From IMG/VR virus record IMGVR_UViG_3300029319_007985, positions 64,001 to 128,000 of that record: a stretch of 64,000 nt of DNA; one strand, written 5' to 3'. The notes below the pieces were generated by a model. That model was not told where the DNA came from and did no database searches. It saw only the letters and a program-made list of their open reading frames with translations. The number at the start of each line of letters is the position of its first letter. Position 1 is the first letter of the stretch. This DNA comes from a virus. Position numbers and translations under genes: made by a program. This document shows, piece by piece, positions 1,019 to 42,860 of the stretch.

Positions 1019-1239
1019 TGGATAAGAAACTATCCTATAAACAAAGATTTAAAAAGGCTTGTAACACAGATAACGTGATAGATTTCAGTGTTGACGTTGG
1101 TTTAATTGCCTTTGACGTACTAGCCTCACCAATACTAATCGTAGTGAGAATAGCAAGATTCTATATTAGGAAATTTGTTAACAATTATCTCAAACGTTTT
1201 TTAAAATGGTTTGTGCATAAAGTTTTAAGAATAAAATGA
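1018..1239 (+). CDS. Hypothetical protein (start moved to 1018)
   Basis: GGAGG upstream and TAATG coupling; hydrophobic centre, basic C-terminus. Confidence 0.6.
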   Translation: MDKKLSYKQRFKKACNTDNVIDFSVDVGLIAFDVLASPILIVVRIARFYIRKFVNNYLKRFLKWFVHKVLRIK

Positions 1240-3074
1240 GTAAAAAATTAACAAGTGTCTGGATGGTGGTAGCACTATCCTTGATCTTATTTTCTGCTAG
1301 ATTATTTGATACAAGTCCTGTTGAAACTTTAAGGTTAAAAACATTTGACTACTATCAAAAGATATCACCCAGAGACGTAACTACAAACTCTGTAGTCATA
1401 GTCGAGATTACGGAGCAAGATCTTAAAAAATACGGCCAATGGCCATGGCCAAGAAATTTAATTGGAAACTTACACAACAGGATATATCAGCACGGGGCAA
1501 AAGTAATCCAATACAATATAATATTCGCTGAAAAAGATAGGGCCGGCAAGGATGAACTTTTTGCACAAAAATTAGCCGGCACTAACACCGTGATGATGTA
1601 TAGTATAAAAGATTCTGCCACAGACGGACAGGTGGCAAAGGTTCCTATTGTAAAACAAGGTGAGCCTGACAAATTTTTGTATAGTTTCAAAGGAGTGGTA
1701 ACAAACATATCGGAACTATTAAGATTCGCTAACGGTGCCGGAGTTAATATTATGGTGCCTAATATAGATGGTACCATTAGGCAGATCCCTTTATTTGTAA
1801 ACACAGACATAGGCACAATACCAAATCAAGTTCTAGACACAATAAGAGTTTACAATAAAAATAACAAATATAAAATTGTTGCAGATAACAACGGTGTTAC
1901 TGAAATACTTCTAAGTAGAAACAAAAAGATCTACACTGATTCTAACGCAATGTTCAATATAAATTTTGCAGAAGCAATAACCATCACAAAATACAGTGTA
2001 ACCGATATTATCAAAAACAAAATTAACCTAGAAAACAAAATTGTTGTAGTTGGGTTGAATGCCGCGGGATTGAGTTATTTAAAAGATACTCCTCTAGGAC
2101 TCATGACCGACACACAAATTAGTGCCCAGGCTATAGAAACTGATCTTACAGACAGCCAACTTATAAGAAATGGTAATACCAATCTAATAGAAATAATAGC
2201 AGTTTTTGTCATTGGATTTTTACTGATAGCCTTAGTGCCCAGGTTTAATATTACCAGCACTGTGCTCGCTTATTTGACGCTTTTAACCGGCATAATTTCG
2301 TCGAGTTTGGTCGCCTATAACGGTTACAATTATATGCTAGACGCATCTTTTCCGGTCTTGTTTATTACCATCATTTGGGGCCATTTGGTATTCAATAGTT
2401 TTGCCAAGCAGTATAGATTAAGGCAACAAATAAAGAAACAGTTTGAACATTATCTTGATCCACGCATGGTCAAAAAATTACAGAAGGATCCTGGGTTATT
2501 GAAGTTGGGTGGAGAGACAAAAACCATGACATTTATGTTTTCAGACATCCGAGGGTTCACTCCTATATCAGAAAAATACAAGGGCAATCCACAAGGACTC
2601 ACACGTTTGATCAATAGGTTTTTGACACGTATGACCAACATTATAATCAAAAACGGTGGCACAGTTGACAAGTACATGGGCGATTGCATAATGGCATTTT
2701 GGAATGCTCCGTTGGATACGCCCAGACATGAAACTTTAGCCATCAAAACTGCATTGCAAATGCAGAAAGAACTTAAAAAATTAAACAGAGAACTTAAAAA
2801 GGAAAAACTTCCTCAAATCAATATTGGCATAGGAATAAACACAGGAGAAGCATTAGTTGGCAACATGGGCAGTGATCAGCGTTTTGATTATTCTGTTATA
2901 GGTGATGATGTCAACTTAGCAAGTAGATTAGAAAGCAGTTCAAAGGAACTACAGACAACTTTGGTAATTGGTGAGAAAACACGTATAAAATGTAAAAAAA
3001 TTAAGTTTACTTCGCTGGGTTCAATCAAAGTAAAAGGAAAAACTGAAGACATCAAAGTGTACACGGTTAAATAA
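1236..3074 (+). CDS. CHASE2-domain class III adenylate/guanylate cyclase
   Basis: CHASE2 GQWPWPR, three TM helices, cyclase motifs FSDIRGFT, DKYMGDCIMAFW, YSVIGDDVNLASRLE. Confidence 0.92.
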   Translation: MSKKLTSVWMVVALSLILFSARLFDTSPVETLRLKTFDYYQKISPRDVTTNSVVIVEITEQDLKKYGQWPWPRNLIGNLHNRIYQHGAKVIQYNIIFAEKDRAGKDELFAQKLAGTNTVMMYSIKDSATDGQVAKVPIVKQGEPDKFLYSFKGVVTNISELLRFANGAGVNIMVPNIDGTIRQIPLFVNTDIGTIPNQVLDTIRVYNKNNKYKIVADNNGVTEILLSRNKKIYTDSNAMFNINFAEAITITKYSVTDIIKNKINLENKIVVVGLNAAGLSYLKDTPLGLMTDTQISAQAIETDLTDSQLIRNGNTNLIEIIAVFVIGFLLIALVPRFNITSTVLAYLTLLTGIISSSLVAYNGYNYMLDASFPVLFITIIWGHLVFNSFAKQYRLRQQIKKQFEHYLDPRMVKKLQKDPGLLKLGGETKTMTFMFSDIRGFTPISEKYKGNPQGLTRLINRFLTRMTNIIIKNGGTVDKYMGDCIMAFWNAPLDTPRHETLAIKTALQMQKELKKLNRELKKEKLPQINIGIGINTGEALVGNMGSDQRFDYSVIGDDVNLASRLESSSKELQTTLVIGEKTRIKCKKIKFTSLGSIKVKGKTEDIKVYTVK

Positions 3075-7220: not shown

Positions 7221-7453
7221 AGTCAAAACACAAAAAAGCAATAATGTGTTTGGTAGACACAACAGAAGCAATACTAAATGTTTTCCAAAAACATAAGATT
7301 AATCCTGATAAAGTTGCTGAACATTATGAATTCAAGGTTTTGGTTCATTTACTGAAAACAATAATTGATGGACAGTCTGGTATACCAAATTCATTACACG
7401 AAAAATTGAAAGATTTAGATCTTGACAAAACACCTAGTCATACAGTACACTAA
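7217..7453 (+). CDS. Hypothetical protein
   Basis: ATGA-coupled ORF. Confidence 0.6.
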   Translation: MKSKHKKAIMCLVDTTEAILNVFQKHKINPDKVAEHYEFKVLVHLLKTIIDGQSGIPNSLHEKLKDLDLDKTPSHTVH

Positions 7454-7457
7454 CACT

Positions 7458-7518
7458 AGAGGACTTTAAGACAATCATCCCTCTTTAAACATTCTGCTTG
7501 TCATCAAAGGAGAAAAAG
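7458..7518 (+). ncRNA. Candidate pseudoknotted riboswitch-like 5' leader of queD
   Basis: AGAGG(7458-62)/CCTCT(7480-84); GACAA(7470-74)/TTGTC(7498-7502); CTTT(7464-67)/AAAG(7506-09, in the SD); promoter TTGACA 7422 / TACACT 7446 directly upstream. Confidence 0.5.
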
Positions 7519-7962
7519 ATGGCATACTATTCAAGTAAAACATATGATCACAATGAAGGACTAAGTTGCGCTTTCAGGCAGTGGAAAGCAACACACAGTC
7601 ATTGCCGTTGGATTCATGGATACGCACTTGCAGTAAAGTTGACTTTCGGTTCCCACAAACTTGACGATAGAAATTGGGTGCAGGATTTTGGAGGCTTAAA
7701 AGACATCAAGTTATGGTTGAAACAAATGTTTGATCATACTTTATGTATTGCTGAAGATGATCCGGAACTGGACAAATTCAAAGAATTACATGCAAAAGAT
7801 TTATGTGACTTAAGAATTGTTCCTGCTGTAGGTTGCGAAAAATTTGCTGAACTGATCTACAATCACGTAAGTAAGATTGTAAACAACGACAGAATATGGT
7901 TAGAATCTGTCGAAGTCAAAGAGCACAGCGGCAATGGAGCAGTATTTAAAAGACAAAATTAA
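7519..7962 (+). CDS. queD: 6-carboxytetrahydropterin synthase
   Basis: HCRWIHGY, DFGGLK, FDHT, GCEKFAE, VKEH; AAGGAG SD places the start at 7519. Confidence 0.88.
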   Translation: MAYYSSKTYDHNEGLSCAFRQWKATHSHCRWIHGYALAVKLTFGSHKLDDRNWVQDFGGLKDIKLWLKQMFDHTLCIAEDDPELDKFKELHAKDLCDLRIVPAVGCEKFAELIYNHVSKIVNNDRIWLESVEVKEHSGNGAVFKRQN

Positions 7963-9082
7963 AGTTACTTTATCTGGAGATAAGGATTTAACCTATACAA
8001 TAAAATTGTATGATAATGATTTTGTTGTTAGATGGTTGAAACATTTCAAAGAAATACTGAGAAATAATTTAATACTTGAAAAAAATTATTGCTTTTTAGG
8101 ATTTGCAGACTCAAAAAGAGATTTGAAATATCTTTGTAACGAGTTAAATTCTGCCGTCAAACAAATAAATGATTTCAATCAAACTAAACAATGGCAAAAT
8201 GCAGGATTGGCATCATATCATATAAAAAATGTTTTCAGTCCCGAGGACTTTATGCATGATGAAAACCTTCCTGTAGGCAATGCACGTGATGGTGTGACCA
8301 AAGAACAAACACTTGGCTGTAGACTTAAACATGAAGCCTGTAACATTCTGCATAGATATTTTGAAGATCTCCAAGGACAGGCATGGAGCCTTTCTGAATA
8401 TTATTTTAAGGCAGATAATGAAACAAAATATGCAATAAGACAGTTGAACAACCTGTGCCATGAAATAGAAAACTGGGTAAGTGCCTTTAGAAAATCCAAG
8501 TATGAGCCTGAATGGATGCGGCCATCTCAGATAACAACATTTTTACATGCTCCAAGATCTCCTTTAAAAGAAAAAGATTATGTTTTATTTAAAAAAAATA
8601 GATACGATCGAGAACTTGGTGGTGTTTACTTACATTGGTCGCAGGTCGGAAAAACTCTATATGAAGTTTGGCGTGATAACGATGAGGCAGTTGGAGAAGG
8701 TGGAATCAATCACCAGCAGTTGTTTTCAGGTGAATTTGATATTGATTGGGGCCAAACAATAACTGAAAAACTTGATTTCAAAAAAGAAGAAACAAGAGAA
8801 TTTAAAAGTTGGCTTGAGAAAAATGGATTTGATTGGGAAGATGATAAACTAGCCTTGGGTTACATCAAATTAGGACAAGTGGATCTTGAATCATCCTTTG
8901 GTACCACAAATTTTTTAGAGGTGCATAGCAAAATGATAGACTGCTTAAATATTAGTAAAATAGAATTGATTGGATCGGAAAATGTTACTGCAAAATACAA
9001 TTACAGTTTGTCTGACCCAGATTGGAAAAAATTACAGATAGGTGAACTTAAAAAAGGATATGAATCACATAGTTTGCGTTAA
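7934..9082 (+). CDS. Hypothetical phage protein
   Basis: 382-aa ORF, no family recognised. Confidence 0.65.
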   Translation: MEQYLKDKIKVTLSGDKDLTYTIKLYDNDFVVRWLKHFKEILRNNLILEKNYCFLGFADSKRDLKYLCNELNSAVKQINDFNQTKQWQNAGLASYHIKNVFSPEDFMHDENLPVGNARDGVTKEQTLGCRLKHEACNILHRYFEDLQGQAWSLSEYYFKADNETKYAIRQLNNLCHEIENWVSAFRKSKYEPEWMRPSQITTFLHAPRSPLKEKDYVLFKKNRYDRELGGVYLHWSQVGKTLYEVWRDNDEAVGEGGINHQQLFSGEFDIDWGQTITEKLDFKKEETREFKSWLEKNGFDWEDDKLALGYIKLGQVDLESSFGTTNFLEVHSKMIDCLNISKIELIGSENVTAKYNYSLSDPDWKKLQIGELKKGYESHSLR

Positions 9083-9755
9083 ATGGGGCAACAAGTACAT
9101 TAGTCAGTATGTCAATGTTCTTAAGAGTATGATCACTAGGCACACTACAGTGCCTTTCCAATTTCATTGTTTTACAGAAGATAAGAAGGGACTAGATGCT
9201 GACATCAACATCATTCCTTTTCCAAATGGTACACACATTAAAAGTTGGTGGAGCAAACTTGCCATGTTCCAGAACGACATTGGCATAAAAGGAACGATAT
9301 TATACTTGGACCTTGATGTTATTGTTTTTAGAAATATTGATGAATTGTTTTCTTATAATCCAGGAAAATTCATGATCATTAGAGATTTCAACAGATGTAG
9401 AGTGGCGGACTGGCGGCAAAGCAATTCAAGTATCATGCGTTGGGAAACAGGCACAATGAATTATCTATGGAATAATTTTAATGCTAACCCTAATAAAGCA
9501 ATAGGAAGAATGCATGGAGATCAAGACTGGATAATGAAAGAGGCAACCAAGGATATTAACCATTGGCCTGATGAATGGATACGTTCATACAAATGGGAAA
9601 TGATGGGTCGCAAAGACACAAAGTTAAGAAGAGGAACCAAATACATTTTCGAACATCCACCAAAAATTGAAGATAATACCAAAATAGCGGTGTTTCATGG
9701 CGAACCAAAACCATTCAACTGCGGTGATCAATTTGTAATTGACAATTGGAAGTAA
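9060..9755 (+). CDS. GT-A fold glycosyltransferase
   Basis: CVKWGNKY, WWSKL, YLDLDV (DxD), GDQDWI, FHGEPKP. Confidence 0.8.
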   Translation: MNHIVCVKWGNKYISQYVNVLKSMITRHTTVPFQFHCFTEDKKGLDADINIIPFPNGTHIKSWWSKLAMFQNDIGIKGTILYLDLDVIVFRNIDELFSYNPGKFMIIRDFNRCRVADWRQSNSSIMRWETGTMNYLWNNFNANPNKAIGRMHGDQDWIMKEATKDINHWPDEWIRSYKWEMMGRKDTKLRRGTKYIFEHPPKIEDNTKIAVFHGEPKPFNCGDQFVIDNWK

Positions 9756-9772: not shown

Positions 9773-10819
9773 ATGCGTATAGGTTTTTGCTGTAAATGGC
9801 TTAATGATAGATCTGAGTTTGGTGGAATGAAAGTCAATGCCAAGGATCGCGAATTAAATGGTAGGTCCACCACAATGCGTTGGCTGAGAGAACATCCAAA
9901 TGACGCAGAGCAAAGACAATGGGACATTATGAATCACAATGCGGCCGCGGCCAAAAGAATGGTCGAGCGTGTTGGTAGTCTACCACCTGAACGTAGAATG
10001 GTACGACTAGGATCTGAAATGTTACAAGGCTACACAGAAAAAAATTGGAAGTCCTGGTGGCAACAAAAAGAAATACAAGATCATTGTGCCAAGATATTTG
10101 CGCCAGTTGGTGAGACTGCAAGACGTCTGGACGTCAAAGTAAGTTTTCATCCCGGACAATTTTGTTGTCTGTCTAGTGTAAATCCTGACATAGTAGAAAG
10201 ATCGATAGAAGAATTTGAATACCATGTTGACATGGCCCGTTGGATGGGATATGGAAAGACATGGCATGATGGTTGCAAGGTGAATGTACATATCTCTGGC
10301 AAACATGGGCCGGAAGGACTACTAAAAGTATTTCCAAGGCTATCCAAAGAAGCAAGGAACTTGATCACAATAGAAAATGACGAGATGGGGCATGGACTGG
10401 AAGATACATTACAAGTTGCACATAAGATTGCCTTAGTTTTAGATATTCATCATCACTGGATACGAGCAGAAGAATATATCGATCCAAATGACGACAGAGT
10501 CAAGAAAGTGATAGATAGTTGGCGAGGTGTAAGGCCCACTCTACATTATTCATACAGCAGAGATGAACACCTCAAACCAGCAGGACTAGGTGACAAAATG
10601 CATACAGAAATGCATGATATCAAAATGTTATTAGAAAGAGGATGTAAAAAACAAAAATTACGGGCACACTCTGACCTACTTCCAAATGCAAAAGTAAATG
10701 ACTGGGCATTGAGTTTTGGTGAAAATTTTGATATACAAACAGAGGCCAAAGGTAAGAACATGGCCGCTGAGCAACTGTACGACCAGTGGCTAAATATCAA
10801 TAATGGAGCCAATATCTAA
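9773..10819 (+). CDS. uvsE: UV DNA damage endonuclease
   Basis: RIGFCC, SFHPGQF, IENDE, LDIHHH, AHSD, EAKGK. Confidence 0.9.
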   Translation: MRIGFCCKWLNDRSEFGGMKVNAKDRELNGRSTTMRWLREHPNDAEQRQWDIMNHNAAAAKRMVERVGSLPPERRMVRLGSEMLQGYTEKNWKSWWQQKEIQDHCAKIFAPVGETARRLDVKVSFHPGQFCCLSSVNPDIVERSIEEFEYHVDMARWMGYGKTWHDGCKVNVHISGKHGPEGLLKVFPRLSKEARNLITIENDEMGHGLEDTLQVAHKIALVLDIHHHWIRAEEYIDPNDDRVKKVIDSWRGVRPTLHYSYSRDEHLKPAGLGDKMHTEMHDIKMLLERGCKKQKLRAHSDLLPNAKVNDWALSFGENFDIQTEAKGKNMAAEQLYDQWLNINNGANI

Positions 10820-40053: not shown

Positions 40054-40557
40054 ATGATGCAAATTTTTATAAATCCATATCACACTCTTAACACTGTCAG
40101 CACTGATGTGGATCTTGAACAAGGTATTCAAGGTTATAGCGACATAGAAAGATTTGAAAAAGATATGATCAATCTTATGGTTGCATCCAAAGGTATTGGA
40201 TTGGCCGCAAACCAACTAGGCATTACCAAGCGATTTTTCTGTATTGGCTATGAATCATTTGACGTTTTTAAAAAACCTGTTATACTATGGAATCCATTGA
40301 TAGTTAGAAGTTCTGAAGAAACTGTCGAGGATGTTGAAGGTTGTTTAAGTTTTCCAGGCGTATGGTTAAAAGTTAGACGACCAAAAAAAGTCACTGTAAG
40401 ATGGCAGAATGTTAAAGGAGAAATTTGTATGCAACATTTAGATAATTTGGAAAGTAAATGTTTTCAGCATGAACTAGACCATATAGATGGCATAACATTT
40501 GACAAACGGGTCTCAAAATTAAAATGGGACATGGCTAAGAAGAAAGCAAAAAAATGA
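40054..40557 (+). CDS. def: Peptide deformylase
   Basis: GIGLAANQ, EGCLS, QHELDH. Confidence 0.93.
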   Translation: MMQIFINPYHTLNTVSTDVDLEQGIQGYSDIERFEKDMINLMVASKGIGLAANQLGITKRFFCIGYESFDVFKKPVILWNPLIVRSSEETVEDVEGCLSFPGVWLKVRRPKKVTVRWQNVKGEICMQHLDNLESKCFQHELDHIDGITFDKRVSKLKWDMAKKKAKK

Positions 40558-42860
40558 TTGAATCAACAGACGACCTAGAACACATATTCGAACAAGCAGT
40601 AAAAGAGGCCGAGTCAAGAAGGCACGAATACGTTACTATAGAACATTTGTTACTTGCTTTAGTAAAAGATAAAAACATAGGTACAATTTTAGTAGACTTT
40701 AAAGTAAATGTTGGAGCATTGATAAAGGATCTAGAAAACTATCTTGATGACGAAGTTAAAGACATCATTGTAAAAGATAAATCAAAACCCGTTAATCCAA
40801 GAAAAACTGCTTCATTAGAAAGACTTATGAATAGAGCCTTTACTCAAGCACTATTTCAAGGAAGACAAGATCTTAAGCCAATTGATATACTGTTGAGTAT
40901 TTTTGCAGAAAAAAGAAGTTACAGTGCATTTTTATTGAAAAAGTTTAATGTTAACAAAGATGATATTACAGATATGGTCTCAGCAGAAAACATTATTGAT
41001 GAATCTGCTTTTGGTGGCTCTGGTCCTGAACAAAAATTAAGACCAGATCAAGCCGATAAGATATTAAGAAATTATACGGAGAATTTGAATCAAAAGTATT
41101 TTGATAAAAAAATTGATCCTGTTATCGGTAGAGAAGAAGAACTTCTTACTATTAAACAAACTCTTGCAAGAAGAAATAAAAATAATGTTTTATTAGTTGG
41201 TGACCCAGGAGTGGGTAAGACTGCCGTGGTCGAAGGATTGGCAAGACGCATAGCAAAAAACAAAGAGGATGTGCCGGAATACTTGAAGGATCATATAGTT
41301 TATAGTCTTGATGTATCTGGAATGATTGCTGGATCAAAGTTTAGAGGAGATTTTGAAGAAAGGTTAAAACTAATTTTGAATGCGCTTGAGAAGAAAGGCA
41401 AAACTATACTTTTCGTTGACGAGGCCCATATGATGGTTGGTGCAGGTTCAACAGGACAAGGAGGAGTGGATCTAGCACAGATGATCAAGCCGGTATTGAC
41501 CAAAGGGTCAATAAAAGTAATCGCTTCAACAACATGGGAAGAATTTAGGAAATTTTTTGACAAAGATCGTGCTCTGATGAGAAGATTTCAAAGGGTACAA
41601 ATAGGAGAGCCGACAAACGAAACTTGTAACAAGATCATCAAAGGTGTAAAACAATATTATGAAAAGTTCCATGGTTGCACTATCACGGACGAAGCATGTG
41701 AAGACGCTGTAGAATATTCAAGTAAATTTATCGCTGATAAAAAATTACCAGACAAGGCAATAGACCTAATGGACTCTGCATGTGCCAGACTAAGATTAAA
41801 AGGCATCAAAAATGGAAAAATTGATCATGACGAAATCATACATGAGGTAAGCAAAGTCACAGGTATTTCAATTGAACAACTATCACAAAAACAAGCAACT
41901 AATTTAAAAACATTAGAAGAAAAAATGAAACTGCAGGTATTTGGACAGGACGAGGCAATCAACACTATCACTGATAAAATTTTAGTTGCTAGGGCAGGCC
42001 TTAAAAGTTTAAACAAACCTGTTGGTAGTTTCTTGTTTTTAGGTCCTACAGGGTGCGGAAAAACTGAGACTGCAAGGCAACTTGCTAAAACACTAGGAGT
42101 TGAATTGCTAAGGTTCGACATGTCTGAGTATCAAGAAAAGCATTCAATTGCCAAATTAATTGGATCACCGCCAGGATACGTTGGCTACGAGGATAGTAAC
42201 ATGGGTGGTGGTATGTTTATCAATGAAGTAGAAAAGAATCCACACGCAGTTGTGCTGTTTGACGAAGTTGAAAAAGCACACAGAGATGTTTCGAACATGC
42301 TTTTACAAGTAATGGACTACGGTACAGTTACTGGCTCTAATGGTAAAAAGGCAGACTGCAGAAATATAACCTTGATCCTGACCTCAAACTTGGGTGCCGA
42401 GGAAATGGAAAAAGCAACATTAGGATTTGGTGACACACAGAGAACTGAAGATGATGATGCAATGAAAAGATTCTTCCCTCCAGAATTTAGAAATAGACTG
42501 GATGCTGTGATCAAGTTCAGTAAATTAGGCAAGGATACAATGAAGAAGATTGTTGGTAAGTTTTTACAAGAACTTAACACAATGACTATTGAAAAAGGTG
42601 TAGAAGTAAATGCCTCGGATGATGCAGTGGACTATCTGATTGACAAAGGTTTTGATGCAAAACTAGGAGCAAGGCCATTAAGCAGAATTATCGATGACGA
42701 GATTAAGAATCCGTTATCAAAAATGATACTGTTTGGTGAACTACAAGAAGGTGGCAGAGTAGAAGTAGCAATCAAAGATGATAAAATAAAAATTGACTAT
42801 AAAAAACCTGTGTCAAAAGACAAACCTAAGACAGTAAAGGCCAATGCGAAAACATCATAA
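40554..42860 (+). CDS. clpA: ClpA AAA+ unfoldase
   Basis: N-domain, two Walker A motifs (GDPGVGKT, GPTGCGKT), no ClpB M-domain, LGF loop. Confidence 0.9.
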   Translation: MIESTDDLEHIFEQAVKEAESRRHEYVTIEHLLLALVKDKNIGTILVDFKVNVGALIKDLENYLDDEVKDIIVKDKSKPVNPRKTASLERLMNRAFTQALFQGRQDLKPIDILLSIFAEKRSYSAFLLKKFNVNKDDITDMVSAENIIDESAFGGSGPEQKLRPDQADKILRNYTENLNQKYFDKKIDPVIGREEELLTIKQTLARRNKNNVLLVGDPGVGKTAVVEGLARRIAKNKEDVPEYLKDHIVYSLDVSGMIAGSKFRGDFEERLKLILNALEKKGKTILFVDEAHMMVGAGSTGQGGVDLAQMIKPVLTKGSIKVIASTTWEEFRKFFDKDRALMRRFQRVQIGEPTNETCNKIIKGVKQYYEKFHGCTITDEACEDAVEYSSKFIADKKLPDKAIDLMDSACARLRLKGIKNGKIDHDEIIHEVSKVTGISIEQLSQKQATNLKTLEEKMKLQVFGQDEAINTITDKILVARAGLKSLNKPVGSFLFLGPTGCGKTETARQLAKTLGVELLRFDMSEYQEKHSIAKLIGSPPGYVGYEDSNMGGGMFINEVEKNPHAVVLFDEVEKAHRDVSNMLLQVMDYGTVTGSNGKKADCRNITLILTSNLGAEEMEKATLGFGDTQRTEDDDAMKRFFPPEFRNRLDAVIKFSKLGKDTMKKIVGKFLQELNTMTIEKGVEVNASDDAVDYLIDKGFDAKLGARPLSRIIDDEIKNPLSKMILFGELQEGGRVEVAIKDDKIKIDYKKPVSKDKPKTVKANAKTS

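Follow-up and report, generated by a model that had tools for sequence, protein, structure and literature searches.

Introduction

SAM-II and SAM-V riboswitches, the latter being marine, control translation initiation by means of a compact H-type pseudoknot. In both cases the Shine-Dalgarno (SD) sequence is contained in the helix stabilized by the ligand, the response is OFF, and the genes under control belong to methionine and SAM metabolism. A different arrangement is found in the adenine riboswitch of Vibrio vulnificus add, a purine-class RNA built around a three-way junction: here the ligand-bound aptamer takes a strand from a helix that hides the initiation region, and translation is switched on. 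In the leader of T4 gene 32, a pseudoknot located far upstream of the start codon is the operator of gp32, and there is no competing start-codon hairpin. Closest to the case described here are the class I preQ1 riboswitches (preQ1-I), H-type pseudoknots in which the P1 helix has 5–6 bp, L3 is rich in A, and L2 contains a conserved C that confers specificity (PMC10622847). The preQ1 classes act by occlusion or sequestration of the SD (PMC11625349).

In this work we have analysed the leader of a queD-family gene from an uncultured jumbo phage, contained in a 172-kb IMG/VR record rated 47% complete. The whole 64,000-nt stretch of this record that was analysed is called the window. The phage carries baseplate genes of the T4 type, and its family B DNA polymerase is closest to those of the jumbo phages Phosso, Atu_ph07 and SCTP-2 (41–49% identity). 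No description of the leader motif presented below was found in the literature searched.

Results

The queD gene and its leader

The features of the locus are collected in Table 1. The product of the gene downstream of the leader matches Pfam PF01242 (8.7e-17) and PHROG 2389 (QueD-like, 9e-39) and has the Cx3HG[H/Y] active-site spacing of the PTPS fold family. It clusters with the phage QueD proteins of 7-deazaguanine gene clusters. Its identity to the QueD proteins of Iggy and Pan1 is about 50%, and all three have the SHCxxxHGY motif; in cultured phages with QueD relatives at this level (~50% identity), the gene adjoins queC, queE, folE and dpdA. With 36.8 bits, it does not reach the 89.25 bits of the NCBIfam QueD equivalog cut-off.

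Table 1. Elements of the queD locus, with positions in the window.
Feature	Position	Strand	Details and basis
ORF upstream of the leader, 78 aa	7217-7453		
Promoter-like site: TTGACA (7422-27), 18-nt spacer, TACACT (7446-51)	7422..7451	+	scanner score 10/12
Leader before queD, intergenic, 65 nt	7454-7518		between the 78-aa ORF and the PTPS/QueD gene
Aptamer-like H-type pseudoknot: P1, L1, P2 5′ strand, L2, P1 3′ strand, L3, P2 3′ strand, AU	7458..7504	+	alignment A3, pair counts
P1 5′ strand AGAGG	7458..7462	+	partner 7480-84
L1 ACUUUAA	7463..7469	+	CU invariant, then a variable insert of 1-6 nt
P2 5′ strand GACAA	7470..7474	+	partner 7498-7502
L2 UCAUC	7475..7479	+	UCA and final C (7479) invariant
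P1 3′ strand CCUCU	7480..7484	+	partner 7458-62
L3 UUAAACAUUCUGC, 13 nt	7485..7497	+	UA.A.A and UCUGC conserved
P2 3′ strand UUGUC	7498..7502	+	common to P2 and the sequestor helix
Sequestor helix 5′ strand UGUCAUC (P2 3′ strand plus AUC)	7499..7505	+	MFE fold, covariation
Shine-Dalgarno region AAAGGAG	7506..7512	+	within the sequestor-hairpin loop, outside the pseudoknot
Sequestor helix 3′ strand GAUGGCA (start codon 7519-21 plus codon 2)	7518..7524	+	MFE fold, covariation
queD-family gene, 147 aa, PTPS fold family	7519..7962	+	ATG at 7519; Pfam, PHROG
Conserved gene, 382 aa	7934..9082	+	first 29 nt shared with the end of queD

The 382-aa gene has 91 related loci (47–74% identity), and in every one listed it lies directly 3′ of queD. 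It is probably co-expressed with queD, and its product may belong to the same pathway. Sequence searches of Pfam, PHROG and PDB returned no match to this protein. Its AlphaFold model (pLDDT 81) has no Foldseek match at E ≤ 0.001, and VIA-align matched it only to generic helical bundles (best Z 9.7, 123 residues) and to cyclophilin-like barrels at Z ~7. Further downstream, a GT8-like glycosyltransferase (9042–9755) and a UvdE UV-endonuclease (9773–10819) form a block that is syntenic with queD in at least 100 related loci.

A leader of roughly 60 nt, starting where a TTGACA-N18-TACACT promoter would place the +1 position, had been predicted at this locus. The intergenic distance is indeed close to this value and the promoter-like site is present, its −10 hexamer ending 6 nt 5′ of P1, but sites of this kind are not enriched in the region (12 seen vs 8.6 ± 2.9 in shuffles). 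Both hexamers are conserved in relatives with differing flanks. In addition, among 213 unique flanks, 55 have a −10 box (at least 5/6 matches to TATAAT) that ends 6–8 nt 5′ of P1, vs 26 in the upstream control window. The frequency of a −10 box at this distance suggests that the motif is often located at the start of the transcript, the P1 end representing in many copies the predicted 5′ end of the mRNA.

A pseudoknot conserved by compensatory changes

Taken as a single sequence, the leader has an unremarkable fold (MFE −11.2 kcal/mol, z = −0.33 vs shuffles), and the significance of its structure therefore comes from the comparison with its relatives. A protein-based search yielded 490 viral contigs with QueD relatives, the closest of which have a conserved leader with compensation in both helices, and a pattern derived from L3 and P2 matched at least 119 viral loci, nearly all of them with the full motif. 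More than 300 copies were recovered overall, most of them found by pattern, so that L3 and GUCAU seem more conserved than they are.

In the alignment of 57 diverse copies (A3), 98.1% of the P1 and P2 cells are paired. Both sides have changed in 63 cells, a count that exceeds the number of independent events because many copies are kin by descent; double-sided change is seen in five of the ten pairs, and compensatory changes occur in both helices. The score of A3 was equalled in none of 500 shuffles, and the slid controls are 33–64% paired. P1 is found as AGAGG/CCUCU, AGUGG/CCACU, UGCGG/CCGCA, AGACG/CGUCU and AGUCG/CGACU, and P2 as GACAA/UUGUC, GACAU/AUGUC, GACUU/AAGUC, GACGC/GUGUC, GACAG/CUGUC and GGCAU/AUGCC. 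This covariation argues that the H-type pseudoknot formed by P1 and P2 in the queD leader is real. Both helices had been proposed in the original prediction, which had named covariation in the leaders of homologous phage queD genes as one way to check the proposal.

The whole element measures 47 nt, of which about 13 are invariant and clustered at the helix junction. The constant nucleotides are CU in L1, UCA..C in L2, and UA.A.A together with UCUGC in L3. On the other hand, L1 varies from 4 to 9 nt, with sequences such as CUAC, CUUC and CUCA and with A, U or C as its first base. The UCUGC block and the other constant nucleotides are conserved also in the 26 unique copies that were reached by the protein search and recognized by the covariance model, a set not fully independent of the pattern, given that this model was built from pattern-selected copies. 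The invariant loop nucleotides are maintained across QueD proteins that are only ~45% identical and that fall into two deep clades of the QueD tree. A conserved, structured aptamer with covariation, located in the 5′ leader of a functionally coherent gene, is a generic mark of riboswitches and, on these comparative grounds, the queD leader bears it.

A competing helix at the start codon

The MFE fold pairs 7499–7505 with 7518–7524 and leaves the SD in the loop. This sequestor helix is 97.4% paired in 106 unique leaders, vs 19–65% when slid. In these leaders the pair just before the AUG (x1-y1) is C-G in 87 cases and U-A in 12, and the pair involving the wobble base of codon 2 (n2-z1) is U-A in 59 and A-U in 28; in one subgroup the helix reads GUCAUUG/CAAUGGC. 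In the 49 short-linker copies of alignment A5 it is 93.9% paired, and one pair is A-U in 21 copies and U-A in 21 others. A single nucleotide that can pair both with its partner in the P2 5′ strand and with the wobble position of codon 2 is found in 165 of 188 leaders. Finally, the gene starts with [A/G/U]UG[G/A]C in all 188 motif-bearing leaders, a sequence absent from most of the ~48 motif-less homologues. Since P2 and the sequestor hairpin use a common strand, they are mutually exclusive. An expression platform that excludes the aptamer helix is a second generic mark of riboswitches, and the pairing data place it in this leader.

The platform is not the same in all copies. In a subgroup of three loci (L068:2918-3001, L069:2920-3001 and L047:2926-3001), the partner of the P2 3′ strand, extended by UAUG, is a CAUAGG that overlaps the SD (CCUAUG with CAUAGG) and not the AUG; judging from these pairings, the same logic would be served by a different expression platform. 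Riboswitches typically join a constant aptamer to an expression platform that varies. Copies of the long-linker subgroup (e.g., L085 and L088) have a conserved CAAACUU[G/A]CU after the aptamer and [C/G][U/A]AGAG before the AUG, two blocks for which no convincing pairing partner was found; possibly they lengthen the sequestor helix beyond an internal loop. A role of the P1 3′ strand as anti-SD (CUCU with GGAG) was also considered and rejected, as this pairing fails in the AGUGG/CCACU subgroup (sequences read by eye).

The competing helix bears directly on the proposal that the leader is a variant of preQ1-I. In a divergent class I preQ1 switch of the OFF type, the ligand would close the pseudoknot, L1 would pair with the SD and the ribosome would be blocked; in this vein, the original prediction had the pseudoknot occlude the SD, with CUUU (7464–67) of L1 pairing with AAAG (7506–09). 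The layouts are alike in several respects: P1 has 5 bp and ends in G-C pairs, a C (7479) immediately 5′ of the P1 3′ strand is invariant in 57 of 57 copies, L3 begins with UAAA.A, and a que gene follows. However, the third pairing does not covary, L1 varying in length and sequence opposite a constant SD region. Furthermore, the SD falls outside P2: GGAG (7509–12) is 6 nt beyond this helix in the window and 15–25 nt beyond it in other subgroups (overall range 1–25 nt), and the element that is conserved instead is the alternative helix hiding the start codon, whose logic is the opposite one. Searches of the whole of Rfam 15 gave no match at E ≤ 10 on 7300–7700, and none at the gathering score on the full window; 8 diverse members of the motif gave no match at E ≤ 1 either. 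The families without a match include preQ1-I (RF00522), preQ1-II, preQ1-III, SAM-II, SAM-V and guanidine-III, and thus the preQ1 and SAM-II/V families suggested for comparison at the outset. What holds of the variant proposal is thus the aptamer layout and the tie to queD; Rfam membership and the OFF logic are not supported, and we regard an OFF switch of the preQ1-I type as highly improbable.

A predicted two-state switch

The calculated energies in the window are −6.8 kcal/mol for the sequestor hairpin, −3.9 kcal/mol for P1 and −2.0 kcal/mol for P2 alone; these are nearest-neighbour values in which tertiary contacts and co-transcriptional folding have no part, so that the pseudoknot could be stable also when ligand-free. 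In the ensemble of the window the probability of an unpaired AUG is ~0.1, the start codon being paired for about 90%. The sequestor belongs to the MFE structure of 161 of 195 leaders and, when the P2 3′ strand is blocked, the mean probability of an unpaired AUG in the 195 leaders rises from 0.05 to 0.41.

We consider it probable that the queD leader is a cis-acting, two-state translational ON riboswitch with a putative small-molecule ligand. In the first state, the predicted ground state, the P1 hairpin and the 7499–7505/7518–7524 hairpin would bury the start codon and translation would be off. In the second state, the 3′ strand at 7498–7502 would pair with GACAA (7470–74) in the P1 loop to give the pseudoknot; both start codon and SD would then be free, and translation would be on. 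Given that the hairpin is the predicted ground state, the default condition would be OFF, and formation of the pseudoknot would turn translation ON. The second state needs extra stabilization, since the sequestor hairpin is stronger than P2 by itself. We infer that this stabilization is provided by a small molecule at the P1/P2 junction, where the invariant nucleotides (CU of L1, UCA..C of L2, UA.A.A..UCUGC of L3) would form a compact pocket; a ligand bound at this invariant junction would be the most economical source of the missing energy.

Alternatively, the device could work without a ligand. The pseudoknot would fold first during transcription, allow a burst of translation and then relax to the hairpin, or else the leader could act as a thermosensor or as a stabilizer of the mRNA 5′ end. 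The order of transcription is compatible with such a timer, P2 being transcribed ahead of the start codon, and so is the hairpin as thermodynamic ground state; likewise, the frequent position of the motif at the predicted +1 is one at which 5′ structure could protect the mRNA. However, neither a timer nor an end cap has need of ~13 invariant loop nucleotides, and in the copies compared it is the junction that stays constant, whereas the loop lengths and the P1 and P2 sequences drift. A ligand-independent device appears to us quite improbable, and the ligand-operated ON switch is the reading that we retain in what follows.

Distribution of the motif

Wherever it could be judged, a QueD-family gene is located directly 3′ of the motif: this is the case in 108 of 108 viral contigs, 108 of 108 metagenome contigs and 2 of 2 contigs of metagenome-assembled genomes (MAGs). 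The covariance model detects the motif in 32 of 80 protein-selected loci, each time just 5′ of queD and on the same strand, and only one copy is present in the phage record (covariance model R1, 68.5 bits). Among 185,579 prokaryotic species genomes, searched with a full-motif pattern checked against known members, only two matches were found, both on short Bacteroidota MAG contigs and both before queD. Megablast and blastn comparisons of the locus and of the leader with 50,697 phage records returned chance fragments only. In Phosso, Motura, BUCT608, Pan1 and Iggy, whose queD regions were scanned with the unfiltered covariance model, no match was found near queD. The motif thus appears, as far as these collections go, to be restricted to uncultured aquatic phages. 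In the QueD tree its presence in the two deep clades corresponds to about nine gains or losses.

Two other queD leaders are of note. One (L044:2860-3000) is a decayed copy of the motif, in which the 3′ half and the long-linker blocks are kept before queD and P1 and the P2 5′ half are lost. The other (L335:2416-2503) belongs to Sinorhizobium phage Phosso, a cultured jumbo-phage relative, whose own 88-nt queD leader has a different hairpin (GGACA...UGUCU) and does not contain the motif.

The tie to a single gene would fit also autoregulation by a protein. QueD itself, or another phage or host factor, could bind either the pseudoknot, with an activating effect, or the hairpin, with a repressing effect, after the model of T4 gene 32 and gp32. 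Leader pseudoknots are known as protein operators in T4-like phages, and autoregulatory operators, like this motif, are bound to one gene family; its restriction to phages points in the same direction. On the other hand, 47 nt with some 13 invariant nucleotides at the junction are more reminiscent of small metabolite aptamers, and the maintenance of the motif across two deep QueD clades of ~45% identity would require the protein partner to co-evolve throughout. The constant core joined to varying expression platforms also counts against a protein operator. Altogether we judge a protein-operated switch unlikely, and a metabolite as the effector of the ON switch better suited to these features.

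The record of this phage contains other unusual genes. Ten matches to the radical SAM family, seven of them above the Pfam cut-off, were found outside the window, at 45–51 kb and 128–165 kb (G000:C1), an unusual load for a phage; several are clustered on the minus strand at 158–165 kb. The window also encodes a 612-aa protein in which a CHASE2 sensor domain is fused to an adenylate/guanylate cyclase domain (1236–3074) and a full-length ClpB/Hsp104-like double AAA+ chaperone of 768 aa (40554–42860).

Genes of the 7-deazaguanine pathway

The original prediction had assigned to the leader the control of precursor supply for DNA modification. In the phage record we found FolE (C1:132021-132548), whose gene has no leader, and a weak QueE-like gene; no QueC, no Pfam TGT match and no Iggy-type DpdA were found in it. 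The TGT family (PF01702) is an insensitive probe for DpdA, as it misses the phage DpdA proteins found by tblastn or protein query in positive controls. FolE and QueE-like genes are present also in motif-bearing relatives. Canonical QueC was not found in the 21 motif-bearing relatives searched, two of which are rated 100% complete, nor in the source record, and the Iggy-type DpdA subfamily, to which the DpdA probing refers, was not found in any of these 22 records. The same searches detected both genes in small motif-less phages. Several motif-bearing records contain weak partial QueC-like matches, in ORFs of ~204–313 aa whose similarity to the QueC model is limited to its N- or C-terminal part (e.g., G001:C1:271514-272098); to judge from these partial similarities, they may be very divergent QueC-like PP-loop enzymes. 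Because no canonical QueC and no Iggy-type DpdA were found in the motif-bearing records, a role of the motif in DNA modification, as put forward in the original prediction, is unsupported, though still conceivable in view of the QueC-like fragments.

Discussion

The comparative analysis outlines a small leader RNA in which a covarying pseudoknot and a covarying start-codon hairpin compete for the same strand upstream of a single gene. For the ligand that would tip this balance, we find most plausible a purine- or pterin-like metabolite of the route from GTP to 7-deazaguanine. We give roughly even credence to the fuller proposal that the 47-nt pseudoknot is the aptamer of a new, phage-restricted riboswitch class which senses a purine- or pterin-like intermediate, or a signal of the host state, and switches queD translation ON, and which would thus be this pathway's first riboswitch of the activating kind, in large aquatic phages apparently devoid of QueC and DpdA.

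Several consequences would follow. The preQ1 classes known before que genes are all OFF switches, which counts against the ON reading; should it hold, this would be the first switch of the ON type before a queuosine or 7-deazaguanine gene. The apparent lack of QueC and DpdA would point to a role of the pathway other than DNA modification in the phages concerned. The presence of FolE, QueD and QueE-like proteins, along with the absence of canonical QueC and of Iggy-type DpdA, raises the question of which product is made from GTP, and the identity of the ligand could answer it directly. Should a ligand be found, the motif would be a new riboswitch class, abundant (>300 copies) and yet confined to uncultured aquatic phages, which is a rare case. 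Large phages could in this manner set the timing or the dosage of a metabolic gene and need no protein regulator for it, and the 47-nt RNA could be used as a compact activating aptamer in synthetic biology.

Among known systems, the nearest likeness is to preQ1-I (RF00522, types I–III, e.g., B. subtilis queC, T. tengcongensis and E. coli yhhQ). In common with this family, the queD motif is a small H-type pseudoknot of the 5′ leader with a P1 of 5 bp, an L3 whose start is partly A-rich, and a queuosine-pathway gene downstream; the conserved C with which L2 ends, beside P1, may correspond to the specificity base of preQ1-I. The two differ in other parts. L1 has 4–9 nt and may start with A, U or C in the queD motif, whereas it has 2–3 nt with a conserved U in preQ1-I; P2 consists of 5 bp that do not include the SD, whereas the short P2 of preQ1-I overlaps or adjoins it; and the 13-nt L3, starting with UA.A.A, ends in an invariant UCUGC, in place of the A-rich tail of preQ1-I. 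Moreover, the logic of the queD motif is apparently ON, via the release of the start codon, whereas preQ1-I represses, and its copies come only from uncultured phages. SAM-II and SAM-V resemble it as compact H-type pseudoknots acting on translation initiation but, unlike these, the queD motif has no Rfam match, keeps the SD outside the helix and precedes other genes. With the add riboswitch it has in common the ON logic by removal of a strand, although add is not a pseudoknot and there is no sequence similarity. The leader of T4 gene 32 is likewise an H-type pseudoknot of a phage 5′ leader controlling translation downstream, the difference being that it is a protein operator. We file the queD motif as a new riboswitch-like class, with an architecture partly like that of preQ1-I and a place outside the preQ1-I family.
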